NCBI GenBank assembly: GCA_905331295.1
Contig: CAJNYD010000480.1
Span: 1-58,926 of the forward strand
Source of the DNA: Rotaria socialis
Lineage: Eukaryota
Reading direction: 5' to 3'
DNA: 58,926 nucleotides
Of this stretch, positions 9,619 to 39,384 are shown piece by piece. Both the position numbers and the translations under genes were made by a program. The notes beneath the pieces are model-generated. The model saw only the letters and a program-made list of their open reading frames with translations. It did no database searches and was not told the DNA's origin. The stretch's first letter is position 1, and every line of letters begins with the position of its first letter.

Positions 9619-10185
9619 ATGGTGAGCAAAAGTGATTCTAATTATTTGGATCGAACCATTTCTACATGCCCAGACCGAATCCGATGCTTCCATGAATATT
9701 TATATGAAATGGAAGCTGATGGAAACGAACAGAAGCTGGCCTTAATTCTTAACCAGCAATCATTGACATATGCCGAACTAATCAATTGCACACAACAAAT
9801 TTCGTCAAGCTTACTTACAAGCTATCAAGTCAAGCCTCAGCAAATCATTTGTCTTTGTGTCGATGCGTCATTCGAAATGGTGATCGGCATTTTAGCGATT
9901 GTCACTTGTGGGGCAATATATTGTCCATTAAATTTGAACGAATCTAATGAATATCTTTTATCAGTTGTTGATCGAATTCACTCGAAGTTAGTGCTGATTC
10001 AGAAGACGACGAAAGGTGAAATATTTTCTAAAAACAAGAATATCTCTACATTTGACATTAGCAACCCTGACAGTTATCACTCGTTGGACAGTGATAATTT
10101 TCATTTACTTTCGACTATTCCACTTAATGCAAATGGTACTTGTCAGCTAACGTTCACCAGGGGTTCGACGGGTCCCTCTAAAATC
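9619..10185 (+). CDS. NRPS exon 1: N-terminal part of adenylation domain A1
   Basis: A1 motif SLTYAEL, A2-like CGAIYCPL, deviant P-loop FTRGSTGPSKI; donor gtgagt at 10186. Confidence 0.8.
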
Positions 10186-13100
10186 GTGAGTAAACTGTTA
10201 CTGAAATTCTCTATAAAACTAGATCATAGATTTTCTAATGAGAAACATCTCACACGTATGACTGCTCAGACAAGTAGGAACCATATACAGTGCAAAAATT
10301 CATAATATTCCGTTCTTTGAAGCTAATAAATTCTTAATTAGCGTGTTAAGGTACTTATTTTCCCCATATTAACAAGAAACACATACTAGATGCGTTTATA
10401 TAGAAAAAGGCTTACGTGAGCCAGTTGAGATCTCAATAGGGTACTACTACACAAGGGAAAACATCATTTTTGATAATTAATGAAAAATAACAGAATAAAA
10501 TAACATGTTTCCCACTGGATTCAAACTCACTTCAAGTTATATCCGCTCTCAGCCACTCAGCTATGTTCGATTTGATCGTGTTTCCTCTTTCACTCGTTTT
10601 CATTTCTTTAGCTATTAAGACTATTTATATTTTAACGACCGGAGCTTTTCTATTACAAATCAATTCGCCGCGATATAATAGTAGTGATATGCGTATTTTC
10701 TGTTAAATTAAGTGCTTTAAATATTGAATAGCAGCGAGCAATCAGTATTTATTCAGAGGAAACCTAAAATAGAATGACGTAAAAAGATATGCGTACCTTT
10801 TTGCAGTTTGTCAATTTTCACAAACGTCTGAGGAAAGTGTTTATGTTAAACAGTCCCAGAAAAAATTATCGGAACAAGTTCTACAAGCATACACTCTAAA
10901 AACAAAATTTCCATACCGAATGTAAAAGGGTTCAGCAAAGAGTACGAAACCTGAAAGGGTTTTTCCCTCAGCCATACGGGAAGAATCTTTTTTTTAGATT
11001 GTATAGAAGTCTTTGTAAAGAATTTGCATTGGTCAACAACATATTCAAAGTTGCATAGAATATATTATCTAATCAGGTTTTAAATATGCCACATTTTTCT
11101 GAGTCTTAATTAATGCTATACCTCAGGCAAAATTCTCAATGACCCCAAAATGCTGCTAAGTTCTCTTTAAATCACGATAAATTGAAGTGAAGATCATGAG
11201 TTTAAACTCAACTGTACCTTGATTATATCGACATTTTTCAATCTTGTCCCTCTAAACTTGAACAACAGTATCGCTGCAATATGTTACTCTTGGCACTTAA
11301 ATAAGAACATACAGAACAGAGAAAGAAGAAAAATATTAATTTAGGATTCTCGGATGCAGGTTAAAAATTTGAATCCAAGTCTCCTAGGAAAGCATTCTTT
11401 CCTGTTTTTTTTTTATGAAATAAAAATCTGATATAACAACTAATAAAAGTGGTAAACTCAATTTATAAATCCCTGTGACAGCGCCAATGCATTGCTACAT
11501 TGTATAGAAAGAAGCAAATCTATACGTTTTTCAATTATATATCAATTGGAGATCATGAGCAACAATTCAAAAGTTGAGTTTAAACTGAAAAAATTCGAAT
11601 CCAAAACATATTTCAACTGAAAATCTATCTTTTATGAACTATTTATTAAGATAGTCTTTCCAAACTTATGGATATAAATTTGAGTTTGACTTCAGTTATT
11701 TTCCAAAACAGTATAATGTCATTCATATCACAAAATTGGCATCAAGAGTCGAGTAAAATATTTCTTTTGATTGTAAATTTATATTATTAAATAAAAATTC
11801 TCACTGTAAACTATATAGAGATGACTATGAAATCAGTGATCGAATGTCATTTACAGCGTTGATAATGGCTGCCTTTTTCCAAAGTCGTTCATTGTATCTT
11901 AACGACAATAAAAAGCGATTTAGCCTTTAATCTTTTTATTTGGTCTGATAAGCAATGACTGGGAGTTGTAACTTAAGCTTTACTTCAGAGCTAACGTAAA
12001 AGTAGATTTTTTATTCAGAGAATTATTTTGTTTTTCGGAAGCAAATTTTTCATAGAACAATCGTTTTATTTGAAGTTTTTTCTAAAGTTAGAGTGCCATT
12101 CTAATCACAATTTCAAGCTGATCACTTTCGAAATCTTGAAAAGTCACTGATGTTTTTATAACACCAGTTAGCAACTAAGAAGAGATTTAATTGAATTGCA
12201 AAACCTAGATTTAGGCATGTAGCAATTGGCACTCATTATTTTTCAGTTGATTTTCGTAAATTAACACTATGGTTCTGTTTTTTTATAATAATCTGTCATA
12301 CAGTTTTTTTTTTGAAAACAATTTTACCAGCAATAATTCGATAGAAACTAGAATTATCCTGTCAGAGTTCTAATCATAATTCGAGGATCAAATCAGTCGA
12401 TCTTTCATAGAATAATGAGTTTTTATATCACAAGTAACGCTCATTGTACGGATTCCCCGATCCTTGTTTGAAAGAATGTTTTTTCATCAATACAAAGAGC
12501 AGAAAAATCCAGTTGATTGCCAATAAGATATTTGATTTAGTCGATTCGCGACTCTTATAGATAGTGGCTATTAGGATGTTTTTGCGGGATGCCAGCTTTT
12601 TCTAATTCTATTAAATGCTTCCCCATATTTTGTTGTTACTGATAAGCTAAAGTGCTATGTGAAAAAAAAACATTTTAGGTATTTACAGTTTTCAGCCGTA
12701 TTATAACAGATATTTGTGCTAACGCGTACCGTGTAAATCCAAAGTGCCATTTGAGCTGGATTTGCCTTACTATTACTTGCTTTCGGAAAAAGAAATGTAT
12801 AAATCTTTACTGTAAGGGTTATTGGAGTTTCTGATCATTTCACATATTAGTATATATATATCACTTTTGTTTTCAATTGAAAAAAATGACACTTGCTGAA
12901 ATTAAAGGTGAATAAATGAAAGAAGAACTAGATGCATCTGTAATATTGGTAAAATAGTTTCCATTTTTTTTTGGAAAATAGCAGCGAATAAGCATATACA
13001 GAGAAAAATAGATAGCGATAGAGAGTGAAAAAATATTAATACACGAAAATGAATTTTTCCGTCCATTTTATTTGTTATTTCTCGATTGTTTAGCAGTAAA

Positions 13101-16100
13101 GACCTTCGAATTAAGCCCCAAACATCTTTATCTGTGGACTTGGGTCCTGTTTAGAAAAAAGTGATTTTGTAGCTTTCTATTCCGCACAAATATAATGATG
13201 AAGGAATACTTTTGTACTTACATTCCTGGCACTTTCATATTTATTCAATGGCGTTCTTTTTCAGATTCAGCATCAAAATGTTTTATTTCCACGTCAGTAT
13301 TTCCAGAAATTCGTATGTAGAAAAGTCTTTCAGTTGTTAACCGATGTGAAATACTATTGCAATCAGCTGCATTAGCAGACTTCGCATTTTTCCTATTAAT
13401 TACAACCTTATCTTAAAGAGAATGTAGCACCACAATGTCTAGTCGTTTGTCGGTGGTCCTATGGATCGCCACTCACGGCTAGACATTCCATAGTTAATTA
13501 TCTTTCCTCTACTAATGGTCAATTTCCATACATCGTCGGGGCAATTTAGGTGTTCTTTCTTGCAAAAATGATTTTTCTTATAATACAGGAATTTAGAGTA
13601 GCAAATTTTTACATCTAAGCTTCTTATTGAATTATTTGTCAGAGTTTTTATTTGATGATACTTCTTCAAAGTAATATCTTAGTAGAATTGTTCATCAGCA
13701 AAGTCTTGGTGGAATTCTTTTGAAAACCACTCTATATCTTCTCTGAATCTTCACTTAAGTATACCTACGGTAAAACTTCAATATCGACGTCTAGTCATTC
13801 GTGGATGGCCCTACGGACTGTCACTCACGACTAGACCTACGACAGCTCTCGGTTCTTTGAACCGAATCTTTTCGAAGAACTGTTTCCAACACACAGTTCC
13901 TTTCCAGGAACTGTAGTGAATACACAGTTCTCTGTCGGGAACCCAGATCCCCAGAACAGTTCCTGCCCAGGAACCAGATCCTCCGAATAGTTCCTACCCG
14001 GGAACCGTCTCTACCCGAACAGTTCTTGGCCCGGAACTGTGTCAGCCCGAACAGTTACTTCTCAGGAACTGTGTCCACCCGAACAGCTCCTGCCCGGAAC
14101 TGTGTCAACCCAAAAAGTTCTTGGCTGGGAACTGTGTCAGCCCGAACAGTTACTTCTCAGGAACTGTGTCCACCCGAACAGTTCTTGCCCGGAACTGTGT
14201 CCACCCGAACAGTTCTTGCCCGGAACTGTGTCCACTCGAACAGCTACTTTTCAGGAACTGTGTCTTAGGGAATTTTTCGATAGGGTTCAGGTCGAGCTGT
14301 GGGGTGATTTTTCTCAAAGACAAGTGGGGTTGTGCTCGTAACAAAAGATGCTTAGAATCCTGTTTCATGAAGACAAAGTAGGTTTGACCCAACGAGAACG
14401 ATTATACACACATACGAACTTTCTCATTGTACAGAGCAAGCTCTTTACATATTTAAAAGACAACATGTCATTTTAGGCAATGGGGGCTTTGTGTCCCTGT
14501 GCTGGAAACATTAGAGTTCCTGAAAATTTTAATTTCGCCGCAACATCGATACATACGTATGTGTAACTTTCACAAAATGTACAATCGAAGGAAAATTTCC
14601 ATTCTTTCATGAATCTAGGGTGTAGTGTGTTTCCAAATAATATGCATATTGTTTGAAAAAAAACTTTTTAACGGACTAGGGTTGTGACAGTTCCGTTTTA
14701 GTTCAGATCTGATGATCTGTTTCGATCAAAGAACTGTTCGAACAGTTCAGTTCCGACCAAAGAACTGTATGACACAGATTAGTTTCGATCAAAGAACTAT
14801 ATGACACAGATCAGTTCCGATCAAAGAACTGTTCGAACAGTTCAGTTCCGATCAAAGAACCGTTCGAGCAGTTCAGTTCCTGCCGATGAACTGTTGGACA
14901 GAGTTCAGTTCCTACCGAGGAACTGTTTGGCATAGATCAGTTCCGATCAAAGAACTTTTGACACAGTTCCAAAGATCGGAACTAATATGGAACTGTCGTA
15001 GGTCTACTCACGACTAGCCGCTCCAGCTCTCGGTTTGTTTTATTAATATATTAATCATCTTTAGAACACAATATTGCATTCAGTTTGAACTCTTGACACC
15101 AAATTATTTGTGTTAGTTAATCTGCAGACCCGAAAATCTCCCTCTTATTGTCGGAAAGATGAATTCACTTCGATTTTCTCTGTAGAATAAACGCCACGGA
15201 TCATTGCATTTTAGCACATCAAACTGACTATTTCTATGTGTCACACTTATCTACATATTTAACTATTATCGATATTTTGGCCCTTAACTCATTCTGTCAG
15301 AAGACACACATATTAAAGCTCAGTAAATAGCTCTAAATTATTTTAATTAGTGATACTAATTTATTATAGATTGCAATCTCCAACTTGACGCTAGCGTCAA
15401 ATGTGAAACTTGAATTCAATTGAAAATCGAAATTTTCAACTTTCAGCTTTCAACTAATAGCAATATATGTGTGAGCCACCAATGCTGCTGGTTTAAAAGT
15501 TTGAAAATTGCAAAATTTCAAATTTCAATTGAATTCAAGTTTCAAGTTTGACAAATATGAATTTTTATTGGTTTACCGCATACTGAAATCCGATTGTATT
15601 GTCAAGCATACAAAAACGTTTAAAGATTTTTGAAGCTGCGTATAACCCGTTGTTTCAGAAAAGGGAATAAAATACAACATTTATGCAGGAAACACAACTT
15701 TTTTTAATTGTAGCTCAATATAAAAAATATCGTAATAAACGGAGCTTTCATTTTGAAAAATGTTCATTATAGGTTGAATGTTCTCATCGAAGTATTGTTT
15801 CCTGTTTGGATTCTTTATCTCAAGTCGACATGATGACTGCCAATTCGATTGTTTTGCAAGCGAGTCCGTGCTCTTTTTATTTTCACTTTGAAGAGATCAT
15901 TGGTGCTTTATATTTTGGTGGTACACTTGTTATGCTTCCTTCAAACGGTAATCGTGATGCACAATATATCTGCGCTTGCATTGAAAATCAACAAGTTACG
16001 GTTGCTTTCTTTGTTCCATTATCTATGAAAAGTTTATATGGTTATGTGCAAGATTCGTCGAATAATTATCAACCAGCTTTACAATCAATAAGAAGATTAT

Positions 16101-19100
16101 GCTCAGTTGGTATGTAAATATTGCTTCGATTAGTTTATTTTCTATAGAGACTAACTTATGATGAACTCAAATATATTAATTGTTCGCATTTATCTTTTTT
16201 ATCCTTATTCTTCGTAGTGAATCGCGACATGACTGAAATCAGTTTATGTTTGGGCAATATATTTCTCTGCACGAGTAACATCAACTTAACATTTGATTCG
16301 TAAAAAAATTAATATATTGCCATATCTATCTGGCTGCTCTAATATATTTCTTGTAAATTATGTGCAGTTTCTCGTCATCCACATTCCACCGTGAGCATCC
16401 ATGTTTGGTTTAACAGAGCTTTCTACTTTTCATTCATTAATCGACTGAAACTTACATAAAATATAGTTAATTCATAGTTATAAGCGAGCGAAGACGTACG
16501 GGTATGGATGTGGGTACAACTCTTTATTAGCCAACACACTGTAAAAAAAAAGGTATTCCACGGAACCAAAAAAGGATCTGAGCGCGGGCACACGGTCAGA
16601 TCCTTTTTAGGTTTCGTAGAAAAAAGGTTCCGTATGGAACTTCTTCTTGGTAAATGGAAAAAATGGTTTCGTACACATGGTTCCGTACGAAACCTCTGTG
16701 AAATTCTGCTAAAAAGGTTTCGTACACATGGTTTCGTATAAAACTTTCCGAATCATACTCATCTGATGAGGAACCCCTTGGAAGTGATGCATGGTTTTTG
16801 AGTTGAGCTGCCGTACATATGGTCGATTTCAGTGAGATATGGAAAACCCTGAAGGATGCCTTTTGTTAGTTCTTCATTCGAAAGTTATCATTATGTTATC
16901 AAAATTTCAGTGAAATGCCGAGGAAACCTTTGTAGCTGTCGAATTGGTTTTGAGTTTGAGCCCAGTTTGTCAGATAGATCTTAGTGAAATATAAAAAGCT
17001 CGAAATGAACGATGATTCATAAGTATTCTATAGAAAGTTGCAGACATTTTCTTGAATTTTAACCTATAGTGTGGCTGATATCAGTGAATTGAATGAGGCT
17101 ATTTCTATTTGAGATTTCGTGAAGAGAGTAATTCACTTATCAGGGAAATGCTCTAAAGGTTTTCCTCAAAAGCACACATCTTTTCCAGAGTTTTCAAAGC
17201 TCAACAATACCACTAGTCTCTAAAAAAAGGATAATGAAATGTGGTATTTTCCATGAACTTTACTATCCCTAGGAAATGTGCATTCTTGTAAAATAAACCT
17301 TTTGGGACATTTCCCTAATAAATCAATTCTTCTCTTCATTAAACCTTAAATAGAAATAGTCTCATTCAATTCCCTGATATCTGCAACACTAGCTTAAAAT
17401 TCAAGAAAATATCTGCAACTTTCTACAGAAGACTTATTAGCCATCGTTCATTTCGAGCTTTTTATATTTCACTAAGATCTATCTGACAAACTGGGCTCAA
17501 ACTCAAAACCAATTCGACAGCTACAAAGGTTTCCTCGGCATTTCACTGAAATTTTGATAACATAATGATAACTTTCGAATGAAGAACTAACAAAAGGCAT
17601 CCTTCAGGGTTTTCCATATCTCACTGAAATCGACCATATGTACGGTAGTTCAACTCGAAAAACCATGCATCACTTCCAAGGGCTCCCTCTTTAGACAAGA
17701 AAGAGAAAATATTGTTTACCTCAAACCCGTGAATAAGTCTTCCTAAAAAAAAAACCCGACAAAAAGCATAAACTTACTTCCATATCAAGATTGCGAACTC
17801 GTCCACAGGAAACAAATAACCAGTTATTTTGACCAATAAACTAACATGAAAAGTAGCATCTCAACCAAGTCTGAAACAGAAAAACAATCATTTGTAAAAC
17901 AAAATAGATTAACTTCTAAATCGAAAAAAGGAATCGATCATGAACGGAAATAAGACTATATTTAAAGAAGAAAACTTACATTTAAGCTTCCATTGAATAT
18001 TCATCCGTGTCCGGTTAATATAAGCATTAAACGAATAGAATAGTTGCTAAATCTTATCACTATGTGTTATATTTACCTAGATTTGCTGGGAGTAGAATAC
18101 GAGCTAGAATTTTCTCCGCTATTCGCACGAAAGTGGCATCCTAGTTAGTTGTTTTTGAGACAATCCTAAATAAGAAAAAAGAACAGCAACTTATATTGTA
18201 AGATTCAACTTACGATTAAATGAATTATTCCCATATACCTAAAATATTTAAAAAAACACCAATTCCTTATATCATATTAAATTTGCAATTCAATTGACCA
18301 GAGAGACATTACCTGCGTATTCATAATTACATGTGACGTATCGTAGAAGATAAAAGAACGATCATACTTGGAAAGATATCCATAATTAATCAATCGATTT
18401 TGGAGATACCACTAACCGGCTCTACCATTCAGCTATCGCATCCATGTGATCGATAAAACGATGAAGGATCCCGATTCCTCGACCACAATAAACTAGTCTA
18501 AACTTCGATCAAAATTAAGATCGGAGTTGAAATGAAATGTCTAAATTTACAGCACTCGATTTTTTGATGGACCCAATATCTGACCAATGGGCGCTCGGAT
18601 GGAAAAAGTAATGACGGATTCGGATTCCTTGACATTGATAACCTATTTCGAACTTCAATCCGAATTGAGATCGGAGTTGAAATGAAATGTCTAATTTCAC
18701 AATCCTTAATTTTTTAATAGACCCAATATCTGACCAATGGGAGCTCAGATTGAAAAAATGTTAACAGATTTAGAATCCTCGACATCGATAGCCTAGTAAT
18801 GTTTTATATGACTTAAATCACATTGCGAAAATATAGAATCTGGCTTCAAGCCAGACCATGTTTCGAAAAATGGTTCAGCATTTAAAAAATTGATGCAGGA
18901 CGGATCCTTTTCAAATATCCGCAACTGTTGAGGATCTGAGATGGGTCTGTAAACTAGCCTGAACCCTGGATGGTTAATTAATGAGCGAATGAAACGTTAA
19001 AAGGTTCAGTATCTTGGCTAAAGCCATAACTGGTTCCCTATACTTTGTACGGATCTATTGGTGGTTCCCCGAACTATTTCATGGTGTCGTATACAGTGTA

Positions 19101-22100
19101 CGAAAGCAATAGGTGTTTCACTACTTATTTTGAGGTTTGGTATACATACTTCAAAACTACAGATAGTTTCCAAAGCCAGATATATGATTTATGTGAATTA
19201 TGTAACACGATTGATGGTTCCGTATATCTGTTACGAAACCATGCATGCCTCTATAAGGGTTGCAAAAGTATCGCATTCACGTTACGAAACTATTACTTAC
19301 TTCGAAAGGCATCAATTGGTTTTGGATATCTTTTGCGGAACCATTAACGGTTTCGTTCAGTTGTCTGAAGGTTCAGCAGACATACTACGAAACTTTTGGC
19401 AGTTTCATATAGTATCTAAAAGTTCCGGAGAGACTCTACGAAACCATTCTCAGTTGTTTAAAAGCTCTAATCGTTCCGGACATGTTTCACGAAACTACCC
19501 ATGGTTTTGCAAAAGATATACTGAACTATTATATCATTTACGAAAGTATAAATGGTTTCGTGTGATGCATGCCGAACCTTTGGATGCTTCGCGAAACTTT
19601 CCATTGATTCGTATAAGATACACGAAACCTTTCCTTGTTAAACGAAACTCTCATTAGTTTCGTAAGACATAAAACAGTTCAGCGTAGATCGTACGAAACT
19701 ATTCACTGTTTCATAAGTGACACAAAGGTTCAGTATTTCTTTGACGGAGCCGGAAATAGTTTTGTAGAATGTGTCCAGAACCTTTATTGTACTTTCGCAA
19801 CCCTGAATGGTTTCGAAGAACCTATGCGGAACTTTTAAATGCTGTTCAGAACTCCCAATGGTTTTGTATGAAGAATACGAAACTAGCAAAAGTTTGGTTC
19901 ACACTCAACGAAACTTCTAGATGGTTTCGTAGTGAAACTTCAAAACCCTTTACAACTTTCGGAACTTAAAAAGGTTCTTTATGGAAGTTCCGAAACTATT
20001 TTCATGCCAAGGAACTTAAAATCGTTTCGTAAAATAGTACCAAACCTCCAAAGTTCGGTAGAACACTTATTTTTTTTACAGTGCACCCGCACCCTCAAGA
20101 TAGATTTGATTTGTATCAAACATGCGTTTGTTTGTTTTTAGGTGATATAATGGAAGTCAAGGCAGCAGAAATTATTCGTCATCTGCATTCTGATTGTAAT
20201 CTATATAACATTTATGGATCTGCTGAATGTCCATTAATTACTACTTACCATGTCAGTAATGATGAACTTTTTTCTTCGAACAAAATCGATTCCTTATCTA
20301 TTGGGCAACCATGCCCCAATATAGACTATGTCATTATCGATAAGAAACAGCACTTAGTTTGTCCTGGTGAAATCGGCGAACTGTGCATTAATAGTCCAGG
20401 ATTGTTTGCTGGTTATTTTGAACGTGAAAATTTGATGAATGAACTGAAATTTCAAGTCAATGATGCTATATTTTATAAAACGGGTGACATGGTAAGAATC
20501 GATCAAAACCATAGCCTTCATTTTGTGAAACGATCTATTTTGGAATTAAACTTACATGGAAAATGTGCTCGAGAGAAAACAGTAGAACGTACAACCCCGA
20601 AGACATTCAACGGCATCGATAAGAAATTGAATTTACAATACGCTCCATCGTGGAAATCTATTGCAGAGCTGCCCATCACTCTTCCTGAGGAAGTACAACA
20701 AATGAAATTTCATCGGATATCAAATATTGTTGATAGAGGTATGCTTCTTGGTCATTCTCTTGACTTTTTCGTTTGAAAAAACAGTTCAGTAGGAATCGAC
20801 GAGAAATAGAATGAATAGAAGATAACTTTCGAAGTGTCGCTCATTAAAATGGTACAGTTCAATTCTTACTCGTAATTTCGGGTTTTCGTCCAAAAAAAAA
20901 ACATTAATATAAGAATAGGATAGTCTGACATCATTTTTAAGAACAACTCATCGACAAGTTTTTAAATCATACCACCCTAAACTGTTGTCAGCCCGCTACA
21001 TCATTTTAAACGAACATTGCGGCATACCTATTAACGACCGTGTGAATAGAACAGTACTTGGTGTAATATATCGCGATCTACTGTAAGATAATCGCGTCAT
21101 GATATCAAGCGAGACCAGGAGGCTTCAAGCAATACAATTTCTTGAAGTATAATCTATTTCAGACGCTACACGTTTTTAAACACTGAAAAAGTGCATAACA
21201 ATTTCTTTCAATCTTGATAATTTTGATATGATCGTGGTACTACTCCTGATCATCACGCTTTGTTAAATTCTATCAAAGTTTCTCAGCATTTCTCATGTGA
21301 ATTTGAATATATATTGGTGAGATTCTACTGGTCGCTGAAAATTTGTTTTATTGAATGATCTTACTCCAGTATTAGAAGGCATAGCTGTGCAAGTACGTTC
21401 TTCTTTTGTTTGTTATCTAAGGCCGTTTAGTGCTGAAGAAAACAAGTTTTGATTAACGATGGTTTGTGTAGTACATATCATTTTTACTAGGTCCATAATT
21501 TGAATTAAGTTTTCTCACTTAAAGTTAATGTTAAGCCTTAATTGATTCATTCCTACTATCCATACCGACACTAACAATACCAAATTTAGCTATTCGAGCT
21601 AAAATATGATCCCATGCTATTTGTAGGGGTCAAACCTATTTCGTAAGAAGTACTGCCTGGCTCTGACTTGGTTTTAGGTAGCTCTATAAAAATTGTTCAT
21701 GAATTTATGCTTTCTGATGGAAAGAAGCCTAACTTTCCCTAGGAGAAGATCGAGGCGTTTCTGTTTTTTTTATTGATTGCACATAAGTTATAGAAGCATT
21801 CGCATTCAAAAAGTACATTCTTCAAAAATCACTATCTGTATCTTTTAGCTCCGGCTTCTTCTGCGCAAGCTCGCATCTGGCTTGACGAACGTATACGCTT
21901 CAATCCGGAAAACCCAGAAGTTGCCATTTATAACATGTCATTTCCGTATCGAATTGCTCCTGGGAGTAGCATTCAAATAAAACAATTGCGGAAAGCATTG
22001 CAAATTATAATTTTGAAACATGAATCACTGCGTACAGCCATCTTCTTTGATTCCAATGATAATATATTGATGCAGAAAATTGTTGATGCTACGAATCCAA

Positions 22101-28100: not shown

Positions 28101-31100
28101 GTGAAAAATATAATTTATTTCAGCTGTATGAGTATGCTAGTTTTTATTAATAGTTGAAGTACAGAATGATAATTGCTTTTTGAAACACAATGATCTCATA
28201 ACTTGTGACTGATTTTTCTCAGCTACCAAAGTTTAATTATTAGTCTCGATTATATCGGTAATCACTATAGAAAATCATTTTTTCCTTAGGTGAGACGATA
28301 TTTCCCAAAACCCTATCACAGCTGGCTGCTCATCTGAATTTCCAGAAAATTCGTATTGAAAATTCGTACGGACCTGCCGAGTGCACGATAGCTACGTTTT
28401 ATCATCGAATAACAATGAATAATATTGAAGAAAAGCGGATTCCGATTGGAACACCTTTTCCCAATACAATAATTCAAGTATTAGATGAATTCCACCAACC
28501 AGTAATACCTGGGGCTGAAGGGGAATTGTTTATTGCGGGCCTTCAACGATTTTTGGGCTACTATCGTCACGATGAACTGAACAATCAAGCTCTTTTTAGT
28601 TCTTATTATTACTCGGGAGATCTTGTTCGAATTGATACAAATGGACTCCTTTACTATATAGGCCGAAAAGATCATCAAATCAAGCTAAAAGGGCAACGCA
28701 TTGAGCTTGGCGAAATCGAACGATGCTTACTTGGCGTATCTTCACAAGTGACAGCTTGTATTGTTGTGAAATGGAGGGATAACTATCTTGTGGCCTATGT
28801 CCAAAGTCAGAGTATCGGAGAAGAACAACTCCGTCAACATTGCCATTTTCACCTTCCACCTTATATGGTTCCATCGATCATCATTATACTTGATCAGTTC
28901 CCATTGACTGTTAATGGGAAAATAGATCGCAAGCAACTTCCTTCGCCTGATTTTTCGTCAACAACTCTATCCTGCGAAGTCTCGATGGATGCACCACGCA
29001 ATCATGTAGAGGAAAAAGTCCATGCTTTGTGGTGCCAAGTAATAAAAACTAATATCGTTCATATTCGTATTACAGCTAACTTTTTTACTGTCGGAGGTCA
29101 CTCTCTACTTCTAACAGAGCTCTACTACCGATATCAATCTGCTTTTGGATTCGATAGTCAAACAATTGGTATCACACCATTTCTCAGGCAAGCAACTATT
29201 GTTGAACATGCAAAGATACTTGAAAACATCAAAGTTAATTGTTCCGACTCAACAACATGGTTCCCATTAAATATCAATGAAGGTAATATCTATTTTGAAT
29301 TTGCTACATCAGCATAATTATTGACTGTCATTAAGGTATTGCTTCATTTGCGCAAGAGCGAATCTTCCTTGATGAATGTAAACGCTTCACAAACCGTGTC
29401 GCCGTTTATAATATTGTATCCGTATGGTATGTTGTGTCAGGTGAACTATCACTGGTACGCCTTCAAGAATCTATCCAATCATTGCTGATCAAACATAAAA
29501 TATTAGACACTTCCTTATTTTTCAACAGTAGTAATAGTGAGCTTGTACAGCGCACAAACTTTACACAAGTGCTATTGAATATCGAAAATCCAAAGACCTT
29601 CTTAAATGACGAAGAACTTCACTCAATTATTCGGCGATCAAGTACTGATTCTAATCTTTTCGATTTAGCTAGTGGTCGTGTATTTTATTGTGAACTTCTT
29701 CGAAATCAATCATCAGAAAATAGTAGCAACTCGATTGCTAGATTTATGAGTCCCGGGGATGCATTCCTGTTTGCTTTTCATCATGCTGCAGTTGATCGAA
29801 CCTCCTTGTCATTCTTCTTTGATGACCTTTGTGAGATCTACAACTGCAATACATCAGTGTACACCAATGTGAATGCATTTCAGTACTTAGACTATTCAGT
29901 GCACGAACGAACACTTGATACGAGTTCATCGCAGCAATTTTGGCGGTCCCAAATGAATGATTACGATTGGAATCGTCACATCACATTACCAGCTGATAGG
30001 CACCGTCTATCGACTGACGAACGATTGGGATTAGGCTCTATTGCAGAATTTTCATTTGATAATGAGCTTTCGCAACGCCTTCTGGCATATTGTTCATCTC
30101 ATCAGATGACATTGTTTCAACTTGGTCTTGCCATATTCACTGCTTTTCTATTCAAACTCATCAGTGAACAAACCGAACTGTGTGTCACTTGTCTACATGC
30201 TAATCGATACAAGCAAGAATTGAGCAAGATGATTGGCATGTTTGTCTCCACATTACCCTATCGCATTCCGTTCAATGCTACCGATTCTTTCCAACAACTC
30301 GCAGAAAAAGTGCGAGACCAGTGTCTATCAGTTCTTGAGCATTCACATTATCCACTTCAGCACATTTTGGCTGACTCGCAAAAACAACAATTGTCAAACA
30401 GTTTCCTAGAGACTGCATACGACCTTTTAACTGTGACTTCGGACGATGACAAGTTGAATTTTGATGGAACTGAAGCCAAGCATGTTTCATTATCTGAAGA
30501 ATATGAAGCAACCAAGTTCGATTTCATGTTAATGGGCTTTTACAATCCATCGGCATCACGCAATATAATTTCATTTTCGCTCATCTGTGCAAGTGATCTC
30601 TTCAACCAATCTACCGTTGAAATATTGGCTCGTCGGTTTTCATCAGTTACCAATCAATTGTTTGGGTCAGAATTGTTGTCATCTCCGTCAAAATCGCTCT
30701 ATCAACTATCTATCATGCTACCTGAAGATTTGAAAGCCATCGAAGCTTTGAATTGTAGTAGCCACAATACAAAACAACTTCTCAGCAACAACATTGTCGA
30801 ACGATTCAATCAAAGGGCTTCAATGCATCCACAAAAGATGGCAGTTGAACTCGATAATCAATCTCTCACATATGGCGAACTACTTTATCACGCACAGTAT
30901 CTTGCTCTTCGTCTTCTTGAGAAGTACAATATCAAGCCAGGTTACATTATTTGCCAGTGTATGGAACGCAGTATATCAATGGTAAGTTAATTCAAATGAG
31001 GAGAATTTTTTCATATACAACGTGCACTTTTCATAATTAGGTTATTGGTATTATGGCAATCGAGATGTGTGGAGCAATCTATTGTTCATTATCTCCTGAT

Positions 31101-34100
31101 GATCCACAGGAGCGTCTCCAAAAAATCATTGAAAAAACGCAACCTCATCTTGCACTTTTCCATGCCACAACACTAGATAAAATGAATCTGTTGGATACCA
31201 AAATACAGATCGAGTCGTTTGATAATACCTATGATTTGTCTGGTGGCATCAATCTGGATAGACTCTCAGCTAATATGATTACAGGCGAAAGTATAGCTTA
31301 TGCTATCTTCACAAGTGGTTCAACTGGTACACCAAAAGCAGTTAGTTAAAGCTTTGCCGTCTTAAGATAACATTCTGCTATTTATCCTTTTTAGGTCCGA
31401 ATAAGACATCAGAATTTCATTAGTTGCATCGATTCTCTTGTTAGTATTGGTCTATTCAGTGAAGAAGATATAATAACGCAAATGGCTCAATGCTCATTTG
31501 ATGTTCATACACAAGAAATCATTGGAACTTTGATCATTGGTGCGACTATCATTATGCTGCATCCTCATGGGACCAAAGATCTAGAATATCTTATTAGTGA
31601 ACTAAGACAAAAACAAGTTACGTACATCCAAATGGTACCAGCATTCATAAACTTTCTTATAGATAATTGTCAATATCACGATAACCTGGTATTGCCCACC
31701 ATTCGCACAATTGACATCGGTGGTAAGAGTTGTATTGAAAGATTATTGTGTTTTATATTTCTTTTTTTTGTAAGGAGAAATTGTTTATACATCATTAATT
31801 CGTAAATTACGACCTCTATTTGATAAAAATACTCACGTATACAACTTATACGGACCAGCTGAGACAACAGTAGATTGTACATGCCATTACATAGAGATCG
31901 AAAGCGATGGGCAAACTGTTCCAATCGGACAACCACTTCCACACTGTGAATGTTTTCTTGTTGATCAGTATTTACAGAATGTTATTGTTGACCAAGAAGG
32001 TGAATTGCTTGTTGGTGGTTGCAGTGTCTTTGCCGGTTACCTTGGACGAGAAGACTTAACATCAAAAGCGCTAGTTAACATAGATGGGCAACTTTTTTAT
32101 CGTACAGGGGATCTTGTGCGGCTAAGCAAGAATAGTCTTCTATATTATGTTGGACGAATAGATTACCAAATTAAATTACACGGTCAGCGCATAGAAGTGG
32201 CTGAGATCGAACAATGTGTGATCAAAGCACCAGGTCAAGTACGAGGTTGCGTGGTTATCAAGTACGGTAATCACAATCTAGTGGCGTATGTTGAAGGTAG
32301 TAGTCTCAAAAAAGAGAAATTACGTGGCCATTGTCGTTCTAATCTTCCATCGTTTATGATTCCTTCGGAATTCATTCTTCTCGACCGATTCCCATTGAAT
32401 GCGAATGGAAAAATAGATCGTTCACAATTTCCTACACCAAACTTATCAGTATGTTCAACTGATCCAGCAGAACAGCATCAAGAACCAATCGGGGAACTCG
32501 AAATACTTATCCATAAGCTATGGTGTGAACTTCTAAATTGTTCTCGAATCTCAAGGTACGAGAACATATTCAGTATTGGTGGTCATTCATTACTGCTAAT
32601 GAAACTATATCAACATTATAAGAGATCATTCGAATTCGATTCGCACATTCTCGGAATCGCTCAGTTTTTTCAGCATCCAACTCTGGCTAATCATGCTGGT
32701 CTTATTGAACAAGCAACTAAAAAACAATGTAATGACTTTAATTCTTCATTTAAATCACATAGAAATTCCGGTATAAAATCTATACACTCATAGAGATTAA
32801 ATCTTTTTGAGTATGTTTTATTATAGGAAGCACATTGTCCGCACCAGAGACGCTGGTAACATGCGATGTAAATAGCCGTTACAATCCTTTCCCATTGACC
32901 AATATCCAGCAAGCCTACTTGATTGGACGTATTGGAGTTTTTGAACTTGGCCATGTGTCTTGTTATGGCTATGAAGAATATGATTGCCCAACATTAAATA
33001 TAGAGAGATTTGAAACAGCGCTGAATCAAATTATCCAACGACACGAAGCACTACGACTCATCTTTCCATCGGAAAGTGAACAACAGATCCTTGAACATGT
33101 GCCATATTATAGAATTCATATTGTAGATCTCAGGGATCAATCAGAAGAATATGTATATAACCAGCTTGAAATAGAGAGAAATCGTCTTTCCCATCAAGTC
33201 TTGCCTGCTGAAAAATGGCCATTGTTTAATTTTCAAATTACGCTTTGGGATTACCAACATCTGCGCCTACATGTCGGCTTTGACGCTCTTCTAATGGACT
33301 GGACAGGTTATCATTTGATGTGGTATGAATTATGTCTACTTTATCTAAATAATAATACTATTTTACCGACGCTAAGATTTTCTTTTCGTGACTATATTTT
33401 GGCAGAACAGGAACTTCGCAAATCGTCCAGATACGAAAATGATAAAAAATATTGGTTGAATCGCTTGAAGACATTTCCTTCTGGACCAAATATGCCAATG
33501 AAAACGTTACCGAGTCAAATAGAGAATCAAAAGTTTGCCCGCCTTTCGAAATTTATAGACGTACACAGCTGGAATATGATCAGAGAACGAACGATTGGGC
33601 TCAAACTGTCTCCAACCGGCGTCTTAGCAGCTGTGTATGCAATAATACTGGCAAGATGGAGCCAACAAAATCATTTTTCTTTGAATTTACCTATTTTCAA
33701 CAGAATACCTATGCATCCAGATATTGACAATATTATTGGTGATTTTACGTCCGTTGTTACACTAGAGATCAATTTAGAGAAAAGTGAACAAACAACTTTT
33801 GTTGAACAAGTGCGCACAATTCAGACGCAGTTATGGGAAGACTTTGATCATGCAAGTTTCAGTGGAGTTGCTTTCATCAATGAACTTAAGCGATCTAATC
33901 ATAGTCAAGAAATACTTCTACCAATCGTGCTCACGTGTGTTATAGATGCCACTAGTGATGATCGAAATAAATCTATGTTTCTTGCTGAACATCTTTTTCA
34001 CGATCCACCAATATATGCTATAGCTCAGACACCGCAAGTATTTCTAGATAATCAAATCTATGAAGAAATAGACGGGAGACTAGGAATTGTGTGGGATTAT

Positions 34101-37100
34101 GTTGATGAGTTATTTCCAACAAACATGATAAATGATATGCACAATGCATTTATCGATCTTCTTCATCATCTCGCATCATCGGATGAAAGTTGGCATCAGC
34201 CCTACAAATTTTCTCTTAGTCTCAGTCAGCAAGAACATCGGTTTGCATTTAATTCTACCAAATGGGATACTCGTAGACAGGATACTCTACTTCATGAATT
34301 AATTATCGAACAAGCAGAGCGCACACCTCATGCTTTAGCTGTTCTATCATCACGTAGAACTTTTACTTATCGAGAATTGATGAGCCGTGTCTATTCTATG
34401 GCAAATTATTTACATCAGCAAATGGCGACACATCATCAATTTATCGCAATTCTAATGGAGAAAGGTTGGGAACAAATAGTAGCTTGCTTGGCTATTTTAA
34501 TGTGTGGAGTTGCTTATTTACCACTTGACATTGATTCTCCTGACGACCGAATATCTTGTTTGATCGAAGAAAGTAATGTAAAAATAATTCTTACACAATC
34601 TAATCAACAGCGCAACTTCGACCATTTGTCTTGCATATCAGTGGATACATTTCTGACTGAGGACTGCTATTCTACCACATTTTTCGTAAAAAATCAAAAG
34701 GCAACTGATTTGGCATATGTTATTTACACATCTGGTTCAACTGGAAGACCAAAAGGAGTTATGATTAGTCATGAATCTGTTATCAACACAATTCTTGATA
34801 TCAATTCTCGACTGGATATTAATGACACTGATCGAATATTTGCGTTATCTCATTTGAACTTTGATTTGTCCGTTTATGATATATTTGGAGCCTTGAGTGC
34901 AGGTGCAACTGTTGTCATACCCGATCATCACGATTACAAAAATCCAAGTCATTGGTATGAATTAATTCTTGAACATCGGGTAACAATTTGGAATAGTGTA
35001 CCAATGTTGATGCAAATGCTAGTCGAATTTTTGCATGATAAAAGTAGTAGCAACCAACTGCGACATATTTTATTAAGTGGAGACTGGATACCAATATCCT
35101 TGCCAAAATCAATAAAAACAACATTTGGTAATGACGTCATAATTACAAGCTTAGGTGGCGCTACAGAAGCTTCCATTTGGTCTATAGCTTATACACTACC
35201 TGAAAATATACCAACCGAATGGAAATCAATTCCATATGGAACACCACTACGTAATCAGCATTACTATGTTTATGACTCTGATCTAAGTGATTGTCCTGAA
35301 TGGGTCACTGGTGAATTATATATCGGTGGTATTGGTCTGGCCAAAGGCTATTGGAAAGATGAGAAAAAGACCAATGCTAGTTTCATTACCCACCCTCACA
35401 CTAGTGAACGGCTTTATCGAACTGGAGATTATGGACGTTTCGTTCCAGATGGCTATATTGAATTTATTGGAAGAACCGATTTCCAAGTGAAATTACACGG
35501 ATATCGAATAGAACTAGAAGATATTGAATATAATCTCCAACAGCATCCAGATATTAATCAAGCATTCGTAACTTTCGATAAACAATCACATAATCTAATT
35601 GGTTATGTTTTACCTTACAACCATGCTTCTCAACAACACCACTACAATATATCAGAAAATTTTATCAAGAATTCAAATGAATGTACCGGTTTAAAATCTG
35701 CAAGACATAACTATTTGAATTCAAAAACTTTAAAAAAGAGATTCTACTTGAGAAGACCCGAGCAAACCGAAGAGTTGGTAGATACTTATTTCGCTCGCAA
35801 AAGCTATCGACAGTTTACAAATCAGCCGATTACAATTTTAGAAGTTGAAATGTTATTAAAATCGATTATTCCATTAAATAAACCCACATTTCCATCGTCT
35901 CCAACATTGTGTGACTATGATAGTTTGAGTCGACTTCTGGCTGCTTTAACTAGCTTAATACTTCCTGACCGAACTTTACCAAAGTATCGTTATGCATCCG
36001 CTAGAAGTCTCTATCCTATACAAGTTTTTGTTGAATTCTCTTCAAAGATAGATAATATAGAGCCTGGTTTTTATTATCATAATCCTGATGAACACTCTCT
36101 CGAGAATATAGGTGAAGACAACTATGATTGTTCGTATGATCATCTCAACAATGACAATGGTATTCGATTTCATTTGGTTGGAAGACAATCGGCTAGTCTG
36201 TCTTTATATGTTGAAGAATCAGTCTCAGCATTATGCTTACTAGAAACTGGATATATTTTTGGTTTATTAGAGAAAGCAGCTCTTACCATGGGATGGCACT
36301 TTGAACAAGTATATAGCGTTGATAGAGAAAAGTACTCGCCATTCATAAATTTGCATACAAATGATACACATTCTTGTTTCTCTCTTAACTGTTCAGTTGT
36401 GATGGATGAAGAAACCATGGAGCCAAAACTTAGTGATTTTCCTTCATGTTATCTTTGTTTTCGATCTTCATACAGTCAAAATGTTGATAAAAATCAATGG
36501 TATGTGCTCGAAAATCATACAGCAAAACTAAAAAAACTTTCTTGCTACTCTACGAAACATAATCTCTCGCAACATAAGTCACTTGTTTTAACTGAAACTG
36601 ATGCCATATTTATGAGTTGTCAAGTTGCTTTATTTATTGTTAGTCAAGCGAACCAATATATAGAAGCAGGAAAGATTGGACATTTTTTGATGGATGCAGG
36701 AATTCAAAAGAATGACACGGACAATAATGGTTACAATATTGGAATGTGTCCCATCGAGACTTGTTCTAATTTATGTGATAAATCAGTACTAAATACATTA
36801 GATGAAATTCTTACTTTCAAACCTCATTCCAAGCTATTGCATACAATTTTTATTGGAAAAATAGGTGAAGATCAGAAAAGAGACAAAATAATATCGAGTT
36901 CAAATAAGGAAATACATTTGATACAAATGTTACAAAAATATCTAGCCACCAAGTTACCTTCCTATATGATACCGTCTTTATTTGTCAAATTAAATGAGAT
37001 CCCTATCAGTTCGAACGGAAAAGTTGATAGAAAATGTTTACCAAAGCCAGACTATTCAAAATTACGATATTCTGATACTACTTCTATGATAATTTCTAGT

Positions 37101-39384
37101 CCACTTGAGACACAAATACAATCGATTTTTTCTCGCGTTCTTGGTAAAGAATCTCCAGCCATAAATGTATCGTTCGGTCAACTGGGAGGTACTTCATTAG
37201 ATGCAATAAGAATTGTGTCAATAATTCGAGAAGAAATTCATGAAAACGTTAACATCGGTATTTTGTTGTCGAATCCATCAGTGCACCAATTGGCTGAAGT
37301 CATTAACAGATTACCGGTTAGAAAAGAAGTTTCTGCAGATGCAATGCCAGATCCGTCAGAAGAAAAACGAATTCAACCGAAACCATCCGTGTTAGTTGAA
37401 ACTTGCGGGATTTTGTTTCTCGCATGCCAGTGGTTATTTCCGTTCTGGATGACACATACGCTCCCGAATATGTATTTTCTTCTTTTTGTGCCTATCTTTC
37501 ACCTAATATCATACGTCGCGTTTCGATTGATTCTATTTGGAAACGATCAAATTCAGAATGAAACTGATAATTTATATTCAGGGAGATATTATCGTTGGTG
37601 GTTTTTAGATCGTCTTTGGTCAATCAACAATACATATTGGTTACAGCATCTACTAGGTACACAATTTTACAATTATTATTTGCGACTATGTGGTGCCAAA
37701 ATCAGTTCTCATGCTCATATTTATACAACAGCAATTGATGCTCCATGGTTACTCGAAATTGGGGATTCGACGTACATTGGCAGCGAGACATTATTGTCTG
37801 CTCTGTCATTGTATGATCAATCATATAGACTCCAAAAGATTAGCATTGGATGCAATTGTTCCATTGGCACTCGTTGTGTATTATATGAAGGGGTTAAGAT
37901 GTCAGATGGTGTGTTTATAGAGCCTATGACTTCCATAACCGGTAATATCCTTCCTTCCGCTATTGGTTTATCAATCGAGAGCAGAGCTCTAGCATGGCAT
38001 CACATAATCTATCAATTTATTTGTCTGGTGTGCCTTGGCTATATTCATTTAATTCTTCTGAATGTAACCCTCCTGGTTTATACATCCTATGCACCACTCA
38101 AGATAGCACTGCCTATCTATCTTGCCTTTATTTGGCTTTTTTGGAGCCTTTCTGGCCTTTTCGTAGTTATAGCTTTGCTTAAGTTTGCTGTAGGTTCAAC
38201 AAAACCTGGTCAGTATAGAATAAATTCCTATTACTATTTACATAAATTGTGGCTTCGCCAATTGATTATATCGTCTTTTCAACATTCTATAAAAGTCTTA
38301 CCCGTATATAGTACACTATCAAATTATTTACTTCGGTGGTTAGGCGCTGATATTGAAGATGATGTGAAATTAGTAGAATTGCAACCACTATTGTATTTTC
38401 CATCAAATCTTCTCAAACTTAATCATGGCGTAACAACATTTTCTGCAGTTATGTTCGTTCCGCTAGAGTTGATGCAATCAGGACACTGTTTTCTTGACCA
38501 AATAGTTCTTGGACAGGCAGCGAATCTTGGAAACTATTGTACAATTATGCCGGGTACAAAGCTTCGTGAGAACAAGGTCGTCGGATCTTTGACTTTAATA
38601 AACAAAGATACAAAATACTTTGATACTAGTAAGGTCTTACTAGGTATTCCAGGTCGTTCCGTATCTTTTGCAATCACCAATGATGCACTTTACAGCGACA
38701 ATTCATTATCATTGGAGTCACCTTGTCTTTTCGATCTGTTCGCTGCATGTATGTTTTTCTTTATAGGCAAGAGTATTTTAATTGTTATTTACTGGTTTCT
38801 GGCGGCTCCTACTGCACTTTTTGCTCAAATAACTTTATTCTGTGTACTGCAACGCTATAGAACATTCAATCAAAGGATACTTGGAAAGTTTGCGTATTCA
38901 GAAATAGTCAATCCTATCACATCACTTATCAATAGCATTACAGATGATTTTGATCGTTTTATAGCACCATTCATTTGTCGGACACAATTTCTTGTTTTTC
39001 TATATCGTGCGTTAGGTGCTCGAATTGGTCACGATGTTATTTTATCAGATAGACAATGTCTGACTGATCCTCAGCTTGTGACCATTGGAGATCATGTCCG
39101 TTTCAACACGGGAGCTTGCATTCAGGTAACATTTCATCTCACTATACCATCATAGGAATTATTGTTTATTTTCTTTGAAGTGTCACACATTTGAACAGCG
39201 TGTCTTCAAAGTAGCACCAGTCACAATTCATCATTCAAGTGTTCTCATGAGTGCTTCATTGGTGTTCCCTGGATCAACACTCGATGGACGAAACCGTCTT
39301 TTTCCGCTTACATTGGTATTGAAAAGTGATCGGCTACCTTACAATACTCACTGGTCAGGAGTTCCAGCTCAACAAATACAATAA
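9619..39384 (+). CDS. Multi-exon non-ribosomal peptide synthetase, ~4,848 aa: A*-C-A-T-C-A-T-Cy-A(Ox)-T-Pls-like terminal domain
   Basis: Hand-assembled exons: 9619-10185, 15773-16109, 20142-20738, 21849-22412, 22473-23817, 26072-26111, 26176-26506, 28290-29282, 29336-30981, 31041-31340, 31395-31722, 31775-32770, 32827-39125, 39181-39384. All introns are GT-AG with matching phases; total 14,547 nt. Splicing restores split motifs (YIDYS, CLLFTSGSTGTPKM, GGE, IQCHTFE). The start codon is uncertain because of an in-frame acceptor at 9577. Confidence 0.88.
13832..15006. mobile_element. hAT-type non-autonomous element in NRPS intron 1
   Basis: TIR TAGACCTACGACAG...CTGTCGTAGGTCTA; perfect 8-bp TSD CTCACGAC; ~30-bp subterminal tandem repeats (GAACAGTTC/GAACTGTG). 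Confidence 0.88.
15396..15552. repeat. Palindromic MITE-like hairpin
   Basis: GTCAAA..TGAAACTTGAATTCAATTGAAA is the inverted match of TTTCAATTGAATTCAAGTTTCA..TTTGAC. Confidence 0.6.
15773..16109 (+). CDS. NRPS exon 2: A1 substrate-pocket region
   Basis: Acceptor ttatag, then VECSHRSIVS...SPCSFYFHFEEIIGAL...RRLCSVG; donor gtatgt at 16110. Confidence 0.8.
16537..20083. mobile_element. CACTA/EnSpm-like non-autonomous element filling most of NRPS intron 2
   Basis: TIR CACTGTAAAAAAAA...TTTTTTTTACAGTG, 2-bp TSD CA, and many GGTTTCGTA/TACGAAAC subterminal repeats. Confidence 0.82.
16775..17682. repeat. ~900-bp foldback (long inverted repeat)
   Basis: Arms ~16775-17190 and ~17270-17682; outer portion nearly perfect, inner portion diverged. 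Confidence 0.88.
20142..20738 (+). CDS. NRPS exon 3: C-terminal part of A1 (A5-A7 present, A8-A10 degenerate, no T domain)
   Basis: YNIYGSAEC, GELCINSPGLFAGY, FYKTGDMV; no GRxDxQVK and no GGxS carrier motif before the next C domain. Confidence 0.8.
21849..29282 (+). CDS. NRPS module 2 (C-A-T), exons 4-8
   Basis: C domain: SSAQARIW, KHESLRT, HHSLFD, IGMFVNAIP. A domain: FTSGSTGTPK, SFDIHV, NSYGPAE, YYSGDL, GRKDHQIKLKGQRIELGEIE, PLTVNGKIDR. T domain: NFFTVGGHSL. Confidence 0.9.
24090..24491. mobile_element. Probable MITE in NRPS intron 5
   Basis: Imperfect TIR CAAGGGGAAAAAATGATTT / AAATCAGTTTTCTCCTTG; internal GAAATCA repeats. Confidence 0.5.
24911..25511. mobile_element. CACT-terminated MITE in NRPS intron 5
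   Basis: CACT...AAATGTGTCGCAT / ATGCGACACATTT...AGTG, TA flanks, and TGTCGC/GCGACA subterminal repeats. Confidence 0.68.
29336..32770 (+). CDS. NRPS module 3 (C-A-T), exons 9-12
   Basis: C domain: SFAQERIF, HHAAVD, IGMFVSTLP. A domain: YAIFTSGSTGTPK, SFDVHT, NLYGPAET, YRTGDL, PLNANGKIDR. T domain: NIFSIGGHSL. Confidence 0.9.
32827..37320 (+). CDS. NRPS module 4: heterocyclization (Cy) domain, Cys-specific A domain with embedded FMN oxidase (Ox), and T domain
   Basis: Cy: FPLTNIQQAYLIGR, DALLMD (DxxxxD), IGDFTS, QTPQVFLD, WDYVDELFP. A: YVIYTSGSTGRPKG, FDLSVYD, TIWNSVP, LLSGDW, SLGGATEASIWS. Ox: RKSYRQF, KYRYASARSLYPIQ, PGFYYHNP. A10: SSNGKVDR. T: LGGTSL. Confidence 0.92.
37380..39384 (+). 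CDS. NRPS C-terminal Pls/PosA-like membrane domain (three repeats of hydrophobic helices plus hexapeptide/beta-helix-like segments)
   Basis: Three repeats YLRLCGAKIS / LLRWLGADIE / LYRALGARIG, each after hydrophobic stretches. The end QCHTFEQRVFK...VTI...LVLKSDRLPYNTHWSGVPA resembles the C-terminus of the Pls-type NRPS terminal domain. Confidence 0.82.

Follow-up and report, generated by a model that had tools for sequence, protein, structure and literature searches.

An intron-containing bdelloid nonribosomal peptide synthetase gene whose predicted terminal cysteine module leads directly into a Pls-like domain

The 58,926-nucleotide contig CAJNYD010000480.1 of the bdelloid rotifer Rotaria socialis (assembly GCA_905331295.1), analysed here over its full length and called the window, carries on its forward strand a nonribosomal peptide synthetase (NRPS) gene that ends in a membrane-type domain resembling that of the amino-acid polymer synthetases Pls and PosA. 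When six-frame open reading frames and Pfam fragments were joined, this gene was placed at 9619..39384, where 14 exons joined at GT..AG sites (13 of 13 introns), with exact start and end, yield a coding sequence of 14,547 nt that specifies 4,848 amino acids (aa) and has a single, terminal stop. An earlier note on this DNA had described one spliced frame, and its coordinates and domain order proved exact; that the frame is carried by one transcript is a prediction. Sequencing run X15, presumed to be RNA, covered only intronic repeats, and we attach no weight to it as evidence on expression. The exons are as follows:

9619-10185, 15773-16109, 20142-20738, 21849-22412 and 22473-23817, forward strand: exons 1-5, GT..AG joins
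26072-26111, 26176-26506, 28290-29282, 29336-30981 and 31041-31340, forward strand: exons 6-10, GT..AG joins
31395-31722, 31775-32770, 32827-39125 and 39181-39384, forward strand: exons 11-14, GT..AG joins

Exons 2-14 have independent annotation support, because the annotated R. socialis protein P0388 equals residues 305-4848 of our model at 100% identity, and a second one, P0385, begins in exon 2 and matches at 99.9% from residue 209. The 100%-identity protein sits in a sequence cluster of 13 members, full-length frames are found in 10 other R. socialis models, and a contig of sequencing run X5, which may itself be the source of the window DNA, covers 25485-39600 with two differences. These matches, together with top relatives that are all Adineta or Rotaria NRPSs, bear out the bdelloid host that had been proposed. 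Membership in a horizontally acquired family had also been suggested; at the locus we found 13 GT-AG introns and an intron-rich, eukaryotic ABCB1-like neighbour. Judged by its sequence, the gene is real and intact. Pfam matches to adenylation (A), condensation (C) and carrier (T) domains run along the forward strand in the order A*-C-A-T-C-A-T-Cy-A(Ox)-T-TERM, in which Cy is a heterocyclisation domain, Ox an oxidase and TERM the terminal domain:

9619..20738, forward strand: A*, degenerate adenylation domain (exons 1-3), Tyr at the Asp235 position, no A10 Lys
21849..23287, forward strand: C1, condensation domain, HHSLFDF, HHxxxD kept
23360..29236, forward strand: A2 (code DIAMAGSIA) and T2 (GGHSL)
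29336..32721, forward strand: C2 (HHAAVDR), A3 (code DVQQDGLVD) and T3 (GGHSL)
32880..34202, forward strand: Cy, heterocyclisation domain, DALLMD, Thr3051, Asp3089, Gln3091
34284..37067, forward strand: A4, adenylation domain, code DLYNLSLIW, A10 Lys present, split by the Ox insert
35619..36914, forward strand: Ox, 433-aa pseudo-dimeric flavin mononucleotide (FMN) oxidase insert in A4, by profile, alignment and fold
37095..37316, forward strand: T4, carrier domain, GGTSLD
37368..39381, forward strand: TERM, Pls/PosA-type terminal domain, three helical hairpins and three left-handed beta-helices in a model

The T serines are all intact, as are three A10 lysines, the His motifs of both C domains, the dyad of Cy and the His of TERM. 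The first A domain has a shortened Asub, is followed by no T domain and is predicted to be inactive. Exon 1 is absent from all 12 R. socialis models compared, which were full-length or long; introns 1 and 2 equal introns 6/10 and 7/11 of A2/A3 in position and phase, which supports exons 1-3 having originally been one A domain, with the exon 1 join drawn from intron-position homology only. C1 is of a type that in bdelloids usually comes after a domain other than T, and might conceivably be a starter (acylating) C domain that caps the N-terminus. Neither the A2 nor the A3 code could be assigned to a substrate. Many bdelloid modules, by comparison, carry tandem C-C domains (P0011-P0080, from Adineta steineri and others), with HHxxxD in 33 of 33 and 42 of 44 cases.

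A hidden Markov model (HMM) built from 236 T sequences recovered exactly three T domains in the six frames of the window, and this search together with tblastn using relatives ruled out that a T domain or an exon had been overlooked in the large introns. Domain-profile searches matched no thioesterase (TE) or reductase (R) in the protein, in line with the absence noted earlier.

Phase-1 introns 3, 8 and 12 (20739, 29283 and 32771) sit just before C1, C2 and Cy and so make the modules symmetric units, an arrangement consistent with modules having been moved by exon shuffling. No intron interrupts the Cy-A(Ox)-T block; because this block and most of TERM lie within one 6.3-kb exon, the key fusion needs no splicing. 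A4 shares 54% identity with a Cy-A(Ox) module from outside the rotifers, while A1-A3 reach 29-33% (80 proteins compared, a set enriched for Cy-A(Ox) modules), which, with the intron-free block, suggests that the cysteine module was acquired separately.

The Cy domain retains DxxxxD (D2834/D2839) and the dyad T3051/D3089 with the helper Gln Q3091. The code of A4, which we take to be a cysteine code, is common to 38 A domains of the comparison set, and A4 is predicted to be Cys-specific. A Thr/Asp dyad with a helper Gln is described for Cy domains (PMC9547227). The best sequence match to the Cy-A module in the PDB is bacillamide synthetase BmdB/BmdC (E 2e-202).

The Ox insert matches TIGR03605 (E 1e-11, under the cut-off) and BmdC (E 1.5e-8), and its predicted fold (model pLDDT 71) matches the pseudo-dimeric nitroreductase 3EO7 as well as BmdC. 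As in EpoB-type Cy-A(Ox)-T modules and in IndC, it lies between A8 and A9, and it has the long pseudo-dimeric form seen in IndC (PMC8795117). EpoB hands its product to a polyketide synthase (PKS) and IndC ends in a TE, whereas in the present gene the glycines of the flavin site are substituted: SAG has become SAR, AIAPLYG has become ASLSLYV and CPIG has become CPIE. By alignment, Arg and Glu stand at the equivalents of BmdC Gly185 and Gly294, both of which contact FMN in BmdC, Gly185 via its backbone and Gly294 at FMN N5 (PMC8795117). All 34 rotifer and all 5 other Ox domains aligned have the Gly294 equivalent (P0156, dropped from the alignment, has Glu as CPIE), and all have the I and P of the I-x-P-x-Y-G motif that is altered here; SAG survives in 21 of the 36 rotifer-like domains and in all 9 others. 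Two of the changes are shared by all 12 R. socialis models.

The earlier note had called this a thiazole-forming module. A Cys-specific Cy module stands, by its code, DxxxxD motif and Thr/Asp dyad; "thiazole" became uncertain because of the two flavin-site substitutions. The assembly line might work with an inactive Ox and deliver a thiazoline, a possibility that concerns the oxidation step only and is compatible with any release of the chain proposed below. The replaced glycines and altered I-x-P-x-Y-G motif favour it, as does the finding that the nearest TERM relatives, P0002 and P0005, are Cy-A-T-TERM lines without Ox; against it, the domain retains the phosphate clamp RKSYR (R-K-S-x-R), the catalytic Tyr3809 and, in the model, the nitroreductase pseudo-dimer fold, SAG is also absent from 15 of 36 rotifer-like Ox domains, CPIE recurs in P0156, and the FMN contacts of BmdC may be backbone-mediated. 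We regard an inactive Ox as evenly balanced against an active one, and the choice between thiazole and thiazoline as the product ring as about even.

Such drift might also mark a decaying or silent gene copy, with A* dead, Ox and Cy diverging, and no product. In a leave-one-out test of otherwise invariant columns against 23 relatives, Ox deviates at 12 of 64 columns (0-4 in the relatives) and Cy at 11 of 80 (mostly 0-3); the test is not decisive for decay specific to Ox, because Cy is similarly divergent, and it is biased because most of the relatives are A. steineri paralogues. Degeneration has a precedent in that some Adineta vaga clusters are frameshifted (PMC11258130). Yet the 14.5-kb frame is open here as it is in the 10 other full-length R. 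socialis models, and the key residues of T, A10, C, Cy and TERM are intact, so we consider a decaying copy improbable. Among variants from four metagenome runs, 19 of 40 were synonymous against 0.28 expected (p 0.006, for the 40 listed of 194, at low depth), and two stops both fell in one 89%-identical fragment; we give this selection test little weight.

The exon-13 portion of TERM matches TIGR02353, the Pls/PosA family, in three stretches (E 2.6e-35, 121.9 bits, cut-off 423.1 bits), and the last exon matches profile positions 631-695, the profile end (E 1e-13, 50.3 bits). The Pls-type terminal domain of the earlier note thus holds up in all three repeats and the profile end, though under the cut-off. 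In an AlphaFold2 model (pLDDT 88.6, pTM 0.90; 582 aa, last exon absent) each helical hairpin is followed by a beta-helix, in agreement with the six helices and three beta-helices predicted for PosA (PMC10522769). Hydropathy finds three segment pairs in TERM, at a threshold that nine windows in soluble domains also pass. Pls/PosA enzymes (TIGR02353; PMC10522769, PMC9205021) likewise place a three-repeat membrane/beta-helix domain with a Q-x-H-x-F-E motif after a T domain and have no TE; they are single A-T enzymes that polymerise diamino acids, whereas this gene has two C domains, one Cy and three T domains, a terminal Cys ring, introns and a TERM of 653 aa versus 714-768 aa, at 22% identity. 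By score and architecture the gene is not a member of the Pls/PosA family, and it is probably Pls-like for one catalytic step.

No solved structure matched TERM at E<=0.001, either by sequence or by Foldseek, which returned the same acyltransferase families only at E>0.001; matches in the ESM Atlas were uncharacterised Hexapep clusters only. The best structural matches of its repeats are left-handed beta-helix (LbH) N- and O-acyltransferases (3ect: Z 10.9, root-mean-square deviation 2.5, 122 aligned), with Z 8-11 for single repeats against LpxD, maltose and galactoside acetyltransferases, AntD and QdtC. These enzymes share the beta-helix fold and use thioester donors, which LpxD takes from a carrier protein; they are soluble homotrimers with three sites, whereas TERM is a pseudo-trimer made from one chain, has hairpins for the membrane and carries the His motif in one repeat only. 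That motif, Q|CHTFEQR in repeat 3, is split by intron 13 (His4783 codon at 39184) and corresponds to bacterial QTHLFEDR (Q-x-H-x-F-E-x-R). Of 64 rotifer-clade TERM domains, 60 have His4783 and 59 have Glu4786; among 14 other TERM domains the counts are 14 and 13. H-[ST]-[FY]-E occurs in 75 of 92 rotifer-clade TERM records, and the other 17 records lack it. LbH enzymes act through a catalytic His, and by analogy with them we infer that His4783 is the catalytic base.

A query with T4-TERM passed 135 proteins; 120 of them were listed, and the 78 that bear the name Adineta or Rotaria take the top ranks. An exhaustive TERM search gave 1,076 representatives at E<=0.001 (150 listed). Among retrieved proteins of at least 1,250 aa, a C domain occurs in 72 of 85 rotifer-clade TERM proteins versus 2 of 64 others. 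In a FastTree phylogeny of 75 chosen rows, a branch with 100% SH-like support separates the rotifer TERM domains from the rest (39 versus 36 rows). P0073, considered as a bacterial donor, was ruled out since it nests in the rotifer clade; P0083 is placed close to the rotifer branch, with weak support and on long branches. The two others with a C domain, also the only non-rotifer multimodular TERM proteins retrieved, are P0085 (A-T-C-A-T-TERM, from a Pseudomonadota metagenome-assembled genome) and the formyltransferase-led P0083. Bdelloids would appear to have fused one acquired Pls-type domain to lines of several modules and to have reshuffled the modules ahead of it.

A line with the same parts, P0331 of A. 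vaga (ACD54728.1, 4,805 aa), which presumably goes back to the 2008 paper on horizontal gene transfer, reads C*-C-A-T-Cy-A(Ox)-T-C-A-T-TERM, is about 45% identical and belongs to the same family; its Cy-Ox module is internal, whereas here that module is terminal and leads directly to TERM. Of 48 matches with Cy-A(Ox) modules, 36 are bdelloid or bdelloid-like, and further C domains usually follow these modules. A Cys module directly before TERM occurs in five of 92 TERM records including this gene, the others being P0010 and P0156 with Ox and P0002 and P0005 without it. The combination had been put forward as one without a characterised counterpart. Our literature search likewise met no characterised enzyme of this architecture, but the combination is not unique, as TERM ends many bdelloid NRPSs: an architecture search recovered the Cy-A(Ox)-(T)-TERM junction in P0010 and P0156, and a single A. 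vaga gene with both an oxidase and NRPS_term has already been catalogued. The combination is therefore neither unique nor unrecorded.

That catalogue entry is region 5.1 in supplementary file 4 of PMC11258130, from 2024 ("Nitro_FMN; NRPS_term", 4,811 aa). Heterocyclization matches are also listed in that file. Across the supplement, NRPS_term appears in 15 rows, equal to 14 A. vaga loci of about 40 clusters, and it ends lines estimated at 17,794-20,965 aa. The gene thus belongs to a known, expanded bdelloid NRPS family in which TERM is catalogued; in the text and supplements searched of the Adineta cluster papers (PMC11258130, PMC10531068), we met no function for NRPS_term, Cy or Ox. The terms thiazol, cyclization, transmembrane and thioesterase do not occur in the main text of PMC11258130 or in the parts of PMC10531068 searched. 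PMC10522769, in the sections seen, mentions metazoan homologues and not rotifers, and limits its network to 1,100-1,800 aa. A literature search that left most subscription papers outside its reach found no functional account of a TERM-type domain in multimodular NRPSs.

The same record includes a line induced by a fungal pathogen, the A. vaga PKS-NRPS g48151, mapped to cluster 5.2 (PMC11258130, file 9; one passage reuses the coordinates for another gene). This cluster starts KS-AT-DH-KR (ketosynthase, acyltransferase, dehydratase, ketoreductase), its last coding sequence has an NRPS_term match, and its product is predicted to be a cyclic heptadepsipeptide (PMC11258130). As the g48151 line ends in NRPS_term, the published cyclic prediction may need revisiting.

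How, then, might the chain leave the enzyme? TERM invariably comes after the last T domain, and neither a TE nor an R domain was matched in this gene. In the route that we favour, A2 and A3 would load two amino acids, as their intact motifs suggest; C1 might acylate the N-terminus, with A* idle; Cy would join Cys to the dipeptide and cyclodehydrate it to a thiazoline, which its conserved motifs would allow; and Ox may, at about even odds, oxidise the ring to a thiazole. The beta-helix pseudo-trimer, held by three helical hairpins, would then use His4783 of repeat 3 as a base to transfer the acyl group from the T4 thioester, a step modelled on LbH acyltransferases and Pls chemistry. By this analogy TERM would move the finished X1-X2-Cys(thiazoline/thiazole) chain off T4 in a single transfer to a small amine at the membrane, a proposal that we rate about as probable as its negation.

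The terminal domains of Pls couple the unit carried by T to an amine acceptor that diffuses freely and at no stage becomes covalently attached (PMC9205021). In a fixed three-module line, one such transfer would be the release step, parallel to the capture of tryptamine in bacillamide synthesis, where the Cys thiazoline is oxidised on the carrier and the chain then leaves as an amide with free tryptamine (PMC8795117); there, unlike in this gene, a soluble C domain releases the product, the oxidase is a separate dimer and no membrane domain is present. Amide transfer to an amine, one of two release modes named in the earlier note, is thus plausible by Pls chemistry. Eight TERM relatives carry a tail resembling polyamine aminopropyltransferases, a match under the cut-off, and this favours polyamine acceptors.

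Several points weigh against amide transfer by TERM: its score lies far under the TIGR02353 cut-off (121.9 versus 423), it is only 22% identical to a PosA-type protein, no solved Pls structure is among its structural matches, the catalytic role of His4783 is drawn by analogy, and the module that feeds it has the divergent Cy and the replaced flavin-site glycines described above. Further points of this kind suit release through an oxygen or internal nucleophile, by hydrolysis to a free acid, by O-acylation of a membrane lipid or sugar, or by side-chain cyclisation. O-acetyltransferases are among the top TERM fold matches, LbH enzymes also O-acylate, rotifers do not keep several acidic and basic residues that bacterial Pls conserve, and an O-methyltransferase-like tail in 46 of 92 rotifer TERM records fits free-acid release, its best NCBIfam matches being O-methyltransferases including the fatty-acid O-methyltransferase Mtf2. 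These matches are nevertheless under the cut-off, this gene has no methyltransferase, and amide formation is the only known chemistry of the family (PMC10522769, PMC9205021); we think release to oxygen or an internal nucleophile unlikely. As to the tails themselves, C-terminal fusions after rotifer TERM are methyltransferase-like in those 46 records (e.g. P0016, P0061) and aminopropyltransferase-like in eight (P0068-P0074, P0078).

The second release mode in the earlier note, iterative oligomerisation, fares worse. Tripeptide units would be added, as in Pls, to the free amine of the previous one to give a thiazol(in)e heteropolymer; this is known Pls/PosA behaviour (PMC10522769, PMC9205021), an inactive A* could leave the N-terminal amine free, and the A3 pocket with its two Asp might, on an unreliable reading, bind a diamino acid. 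It is implausible, however, for the KS-AT-DH-KR-started cluster 5.2 and the lines of 17,794-20,965 aa that share a TERM-type end; C1, moreover, keeps HHxxxD and could cap the amine, no A code equals the Pls/PosA-type codes examined, and the terminal A4 has a cysteine code and not one for a diamino acid. We therefore hold oligomerisation to be very unlikely.

Transfer of the finished chain to an amine would have a bearing beyond this gene. With somewhat less than even confidence, and by analogy, we suggest that bdelloids repurposed the polymerase domain of a polylysine synthetase as a general membrane-anchored terminator of NRPS and PKS-NRPS lines that couples peptides to amines or polyamines; if so, chain release would have one more class alongside TE, R and terminal C domains, the true structure of the pathogen-induced A. 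vaga product, for which only a cyclic depsipeptide has been predicted, would depend on it, and the product here would be an animal-encoded thiazol(in)e peptide amide. TERM-type chemistry would constrain product predictions for the whole bdelloid family (14 of about 40 A. vaga clusters), and TERM might serve NRPS engineering as an amide-forming release domain. The present line is a tractable test case, being short, with a terminal module whose Cys substrate is confidently predicted and with a single exon that covers Cy-A(Ox)-T and most of TERM, and it opens the release chemistry of animal NRPSs, a pathogen-induced one among them, to direct test. His4783 also points to a candidate for the catalytic His in Pls/PosA, enzymes for whose terminal domain no structure has been solved.

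Downstream of the NRPS gene the window holds another full-length gene, which has many short introns and two long ones:

40855..50785 (ends approximate), reverse strand: ABCB1/P-glycoprotein-like transporter gene, full-length, tail-to-tail with the NRPS gene and about 1.5 kb away

ABCB1 neighbours have been reported for one Adineta cluster (PMC11258130), and by this analogy the NRPS and the ABCB1-like pump may be functionally linked; more speculatively, the pump may export the product. Metagenome scans gave nothing on neighbour conservation at the locus, and a pattern across GTDB genomes arose from A-domain columns.

Introns 1, 2 and 5 of the NRPS gene contain repeats. Intron 2 holds a foldback element of about 950 bp (16753-17704) that resembles a miniature inverted-repeat transposable element, with 272-nt arms at 96% complementarity and nested arms. 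Tandem repeats occur in introns 1 and 2 (13931-14264, 14716-14967 and 18448-18747; units of about 32/95, 126 and 150 nt), and high-copy repeats lie in introns 2 and 5 (about 20000-20076, 24145-24470 and 24910-25511), where summed contig depth in run X5 reaches 340-950 versus about 30.

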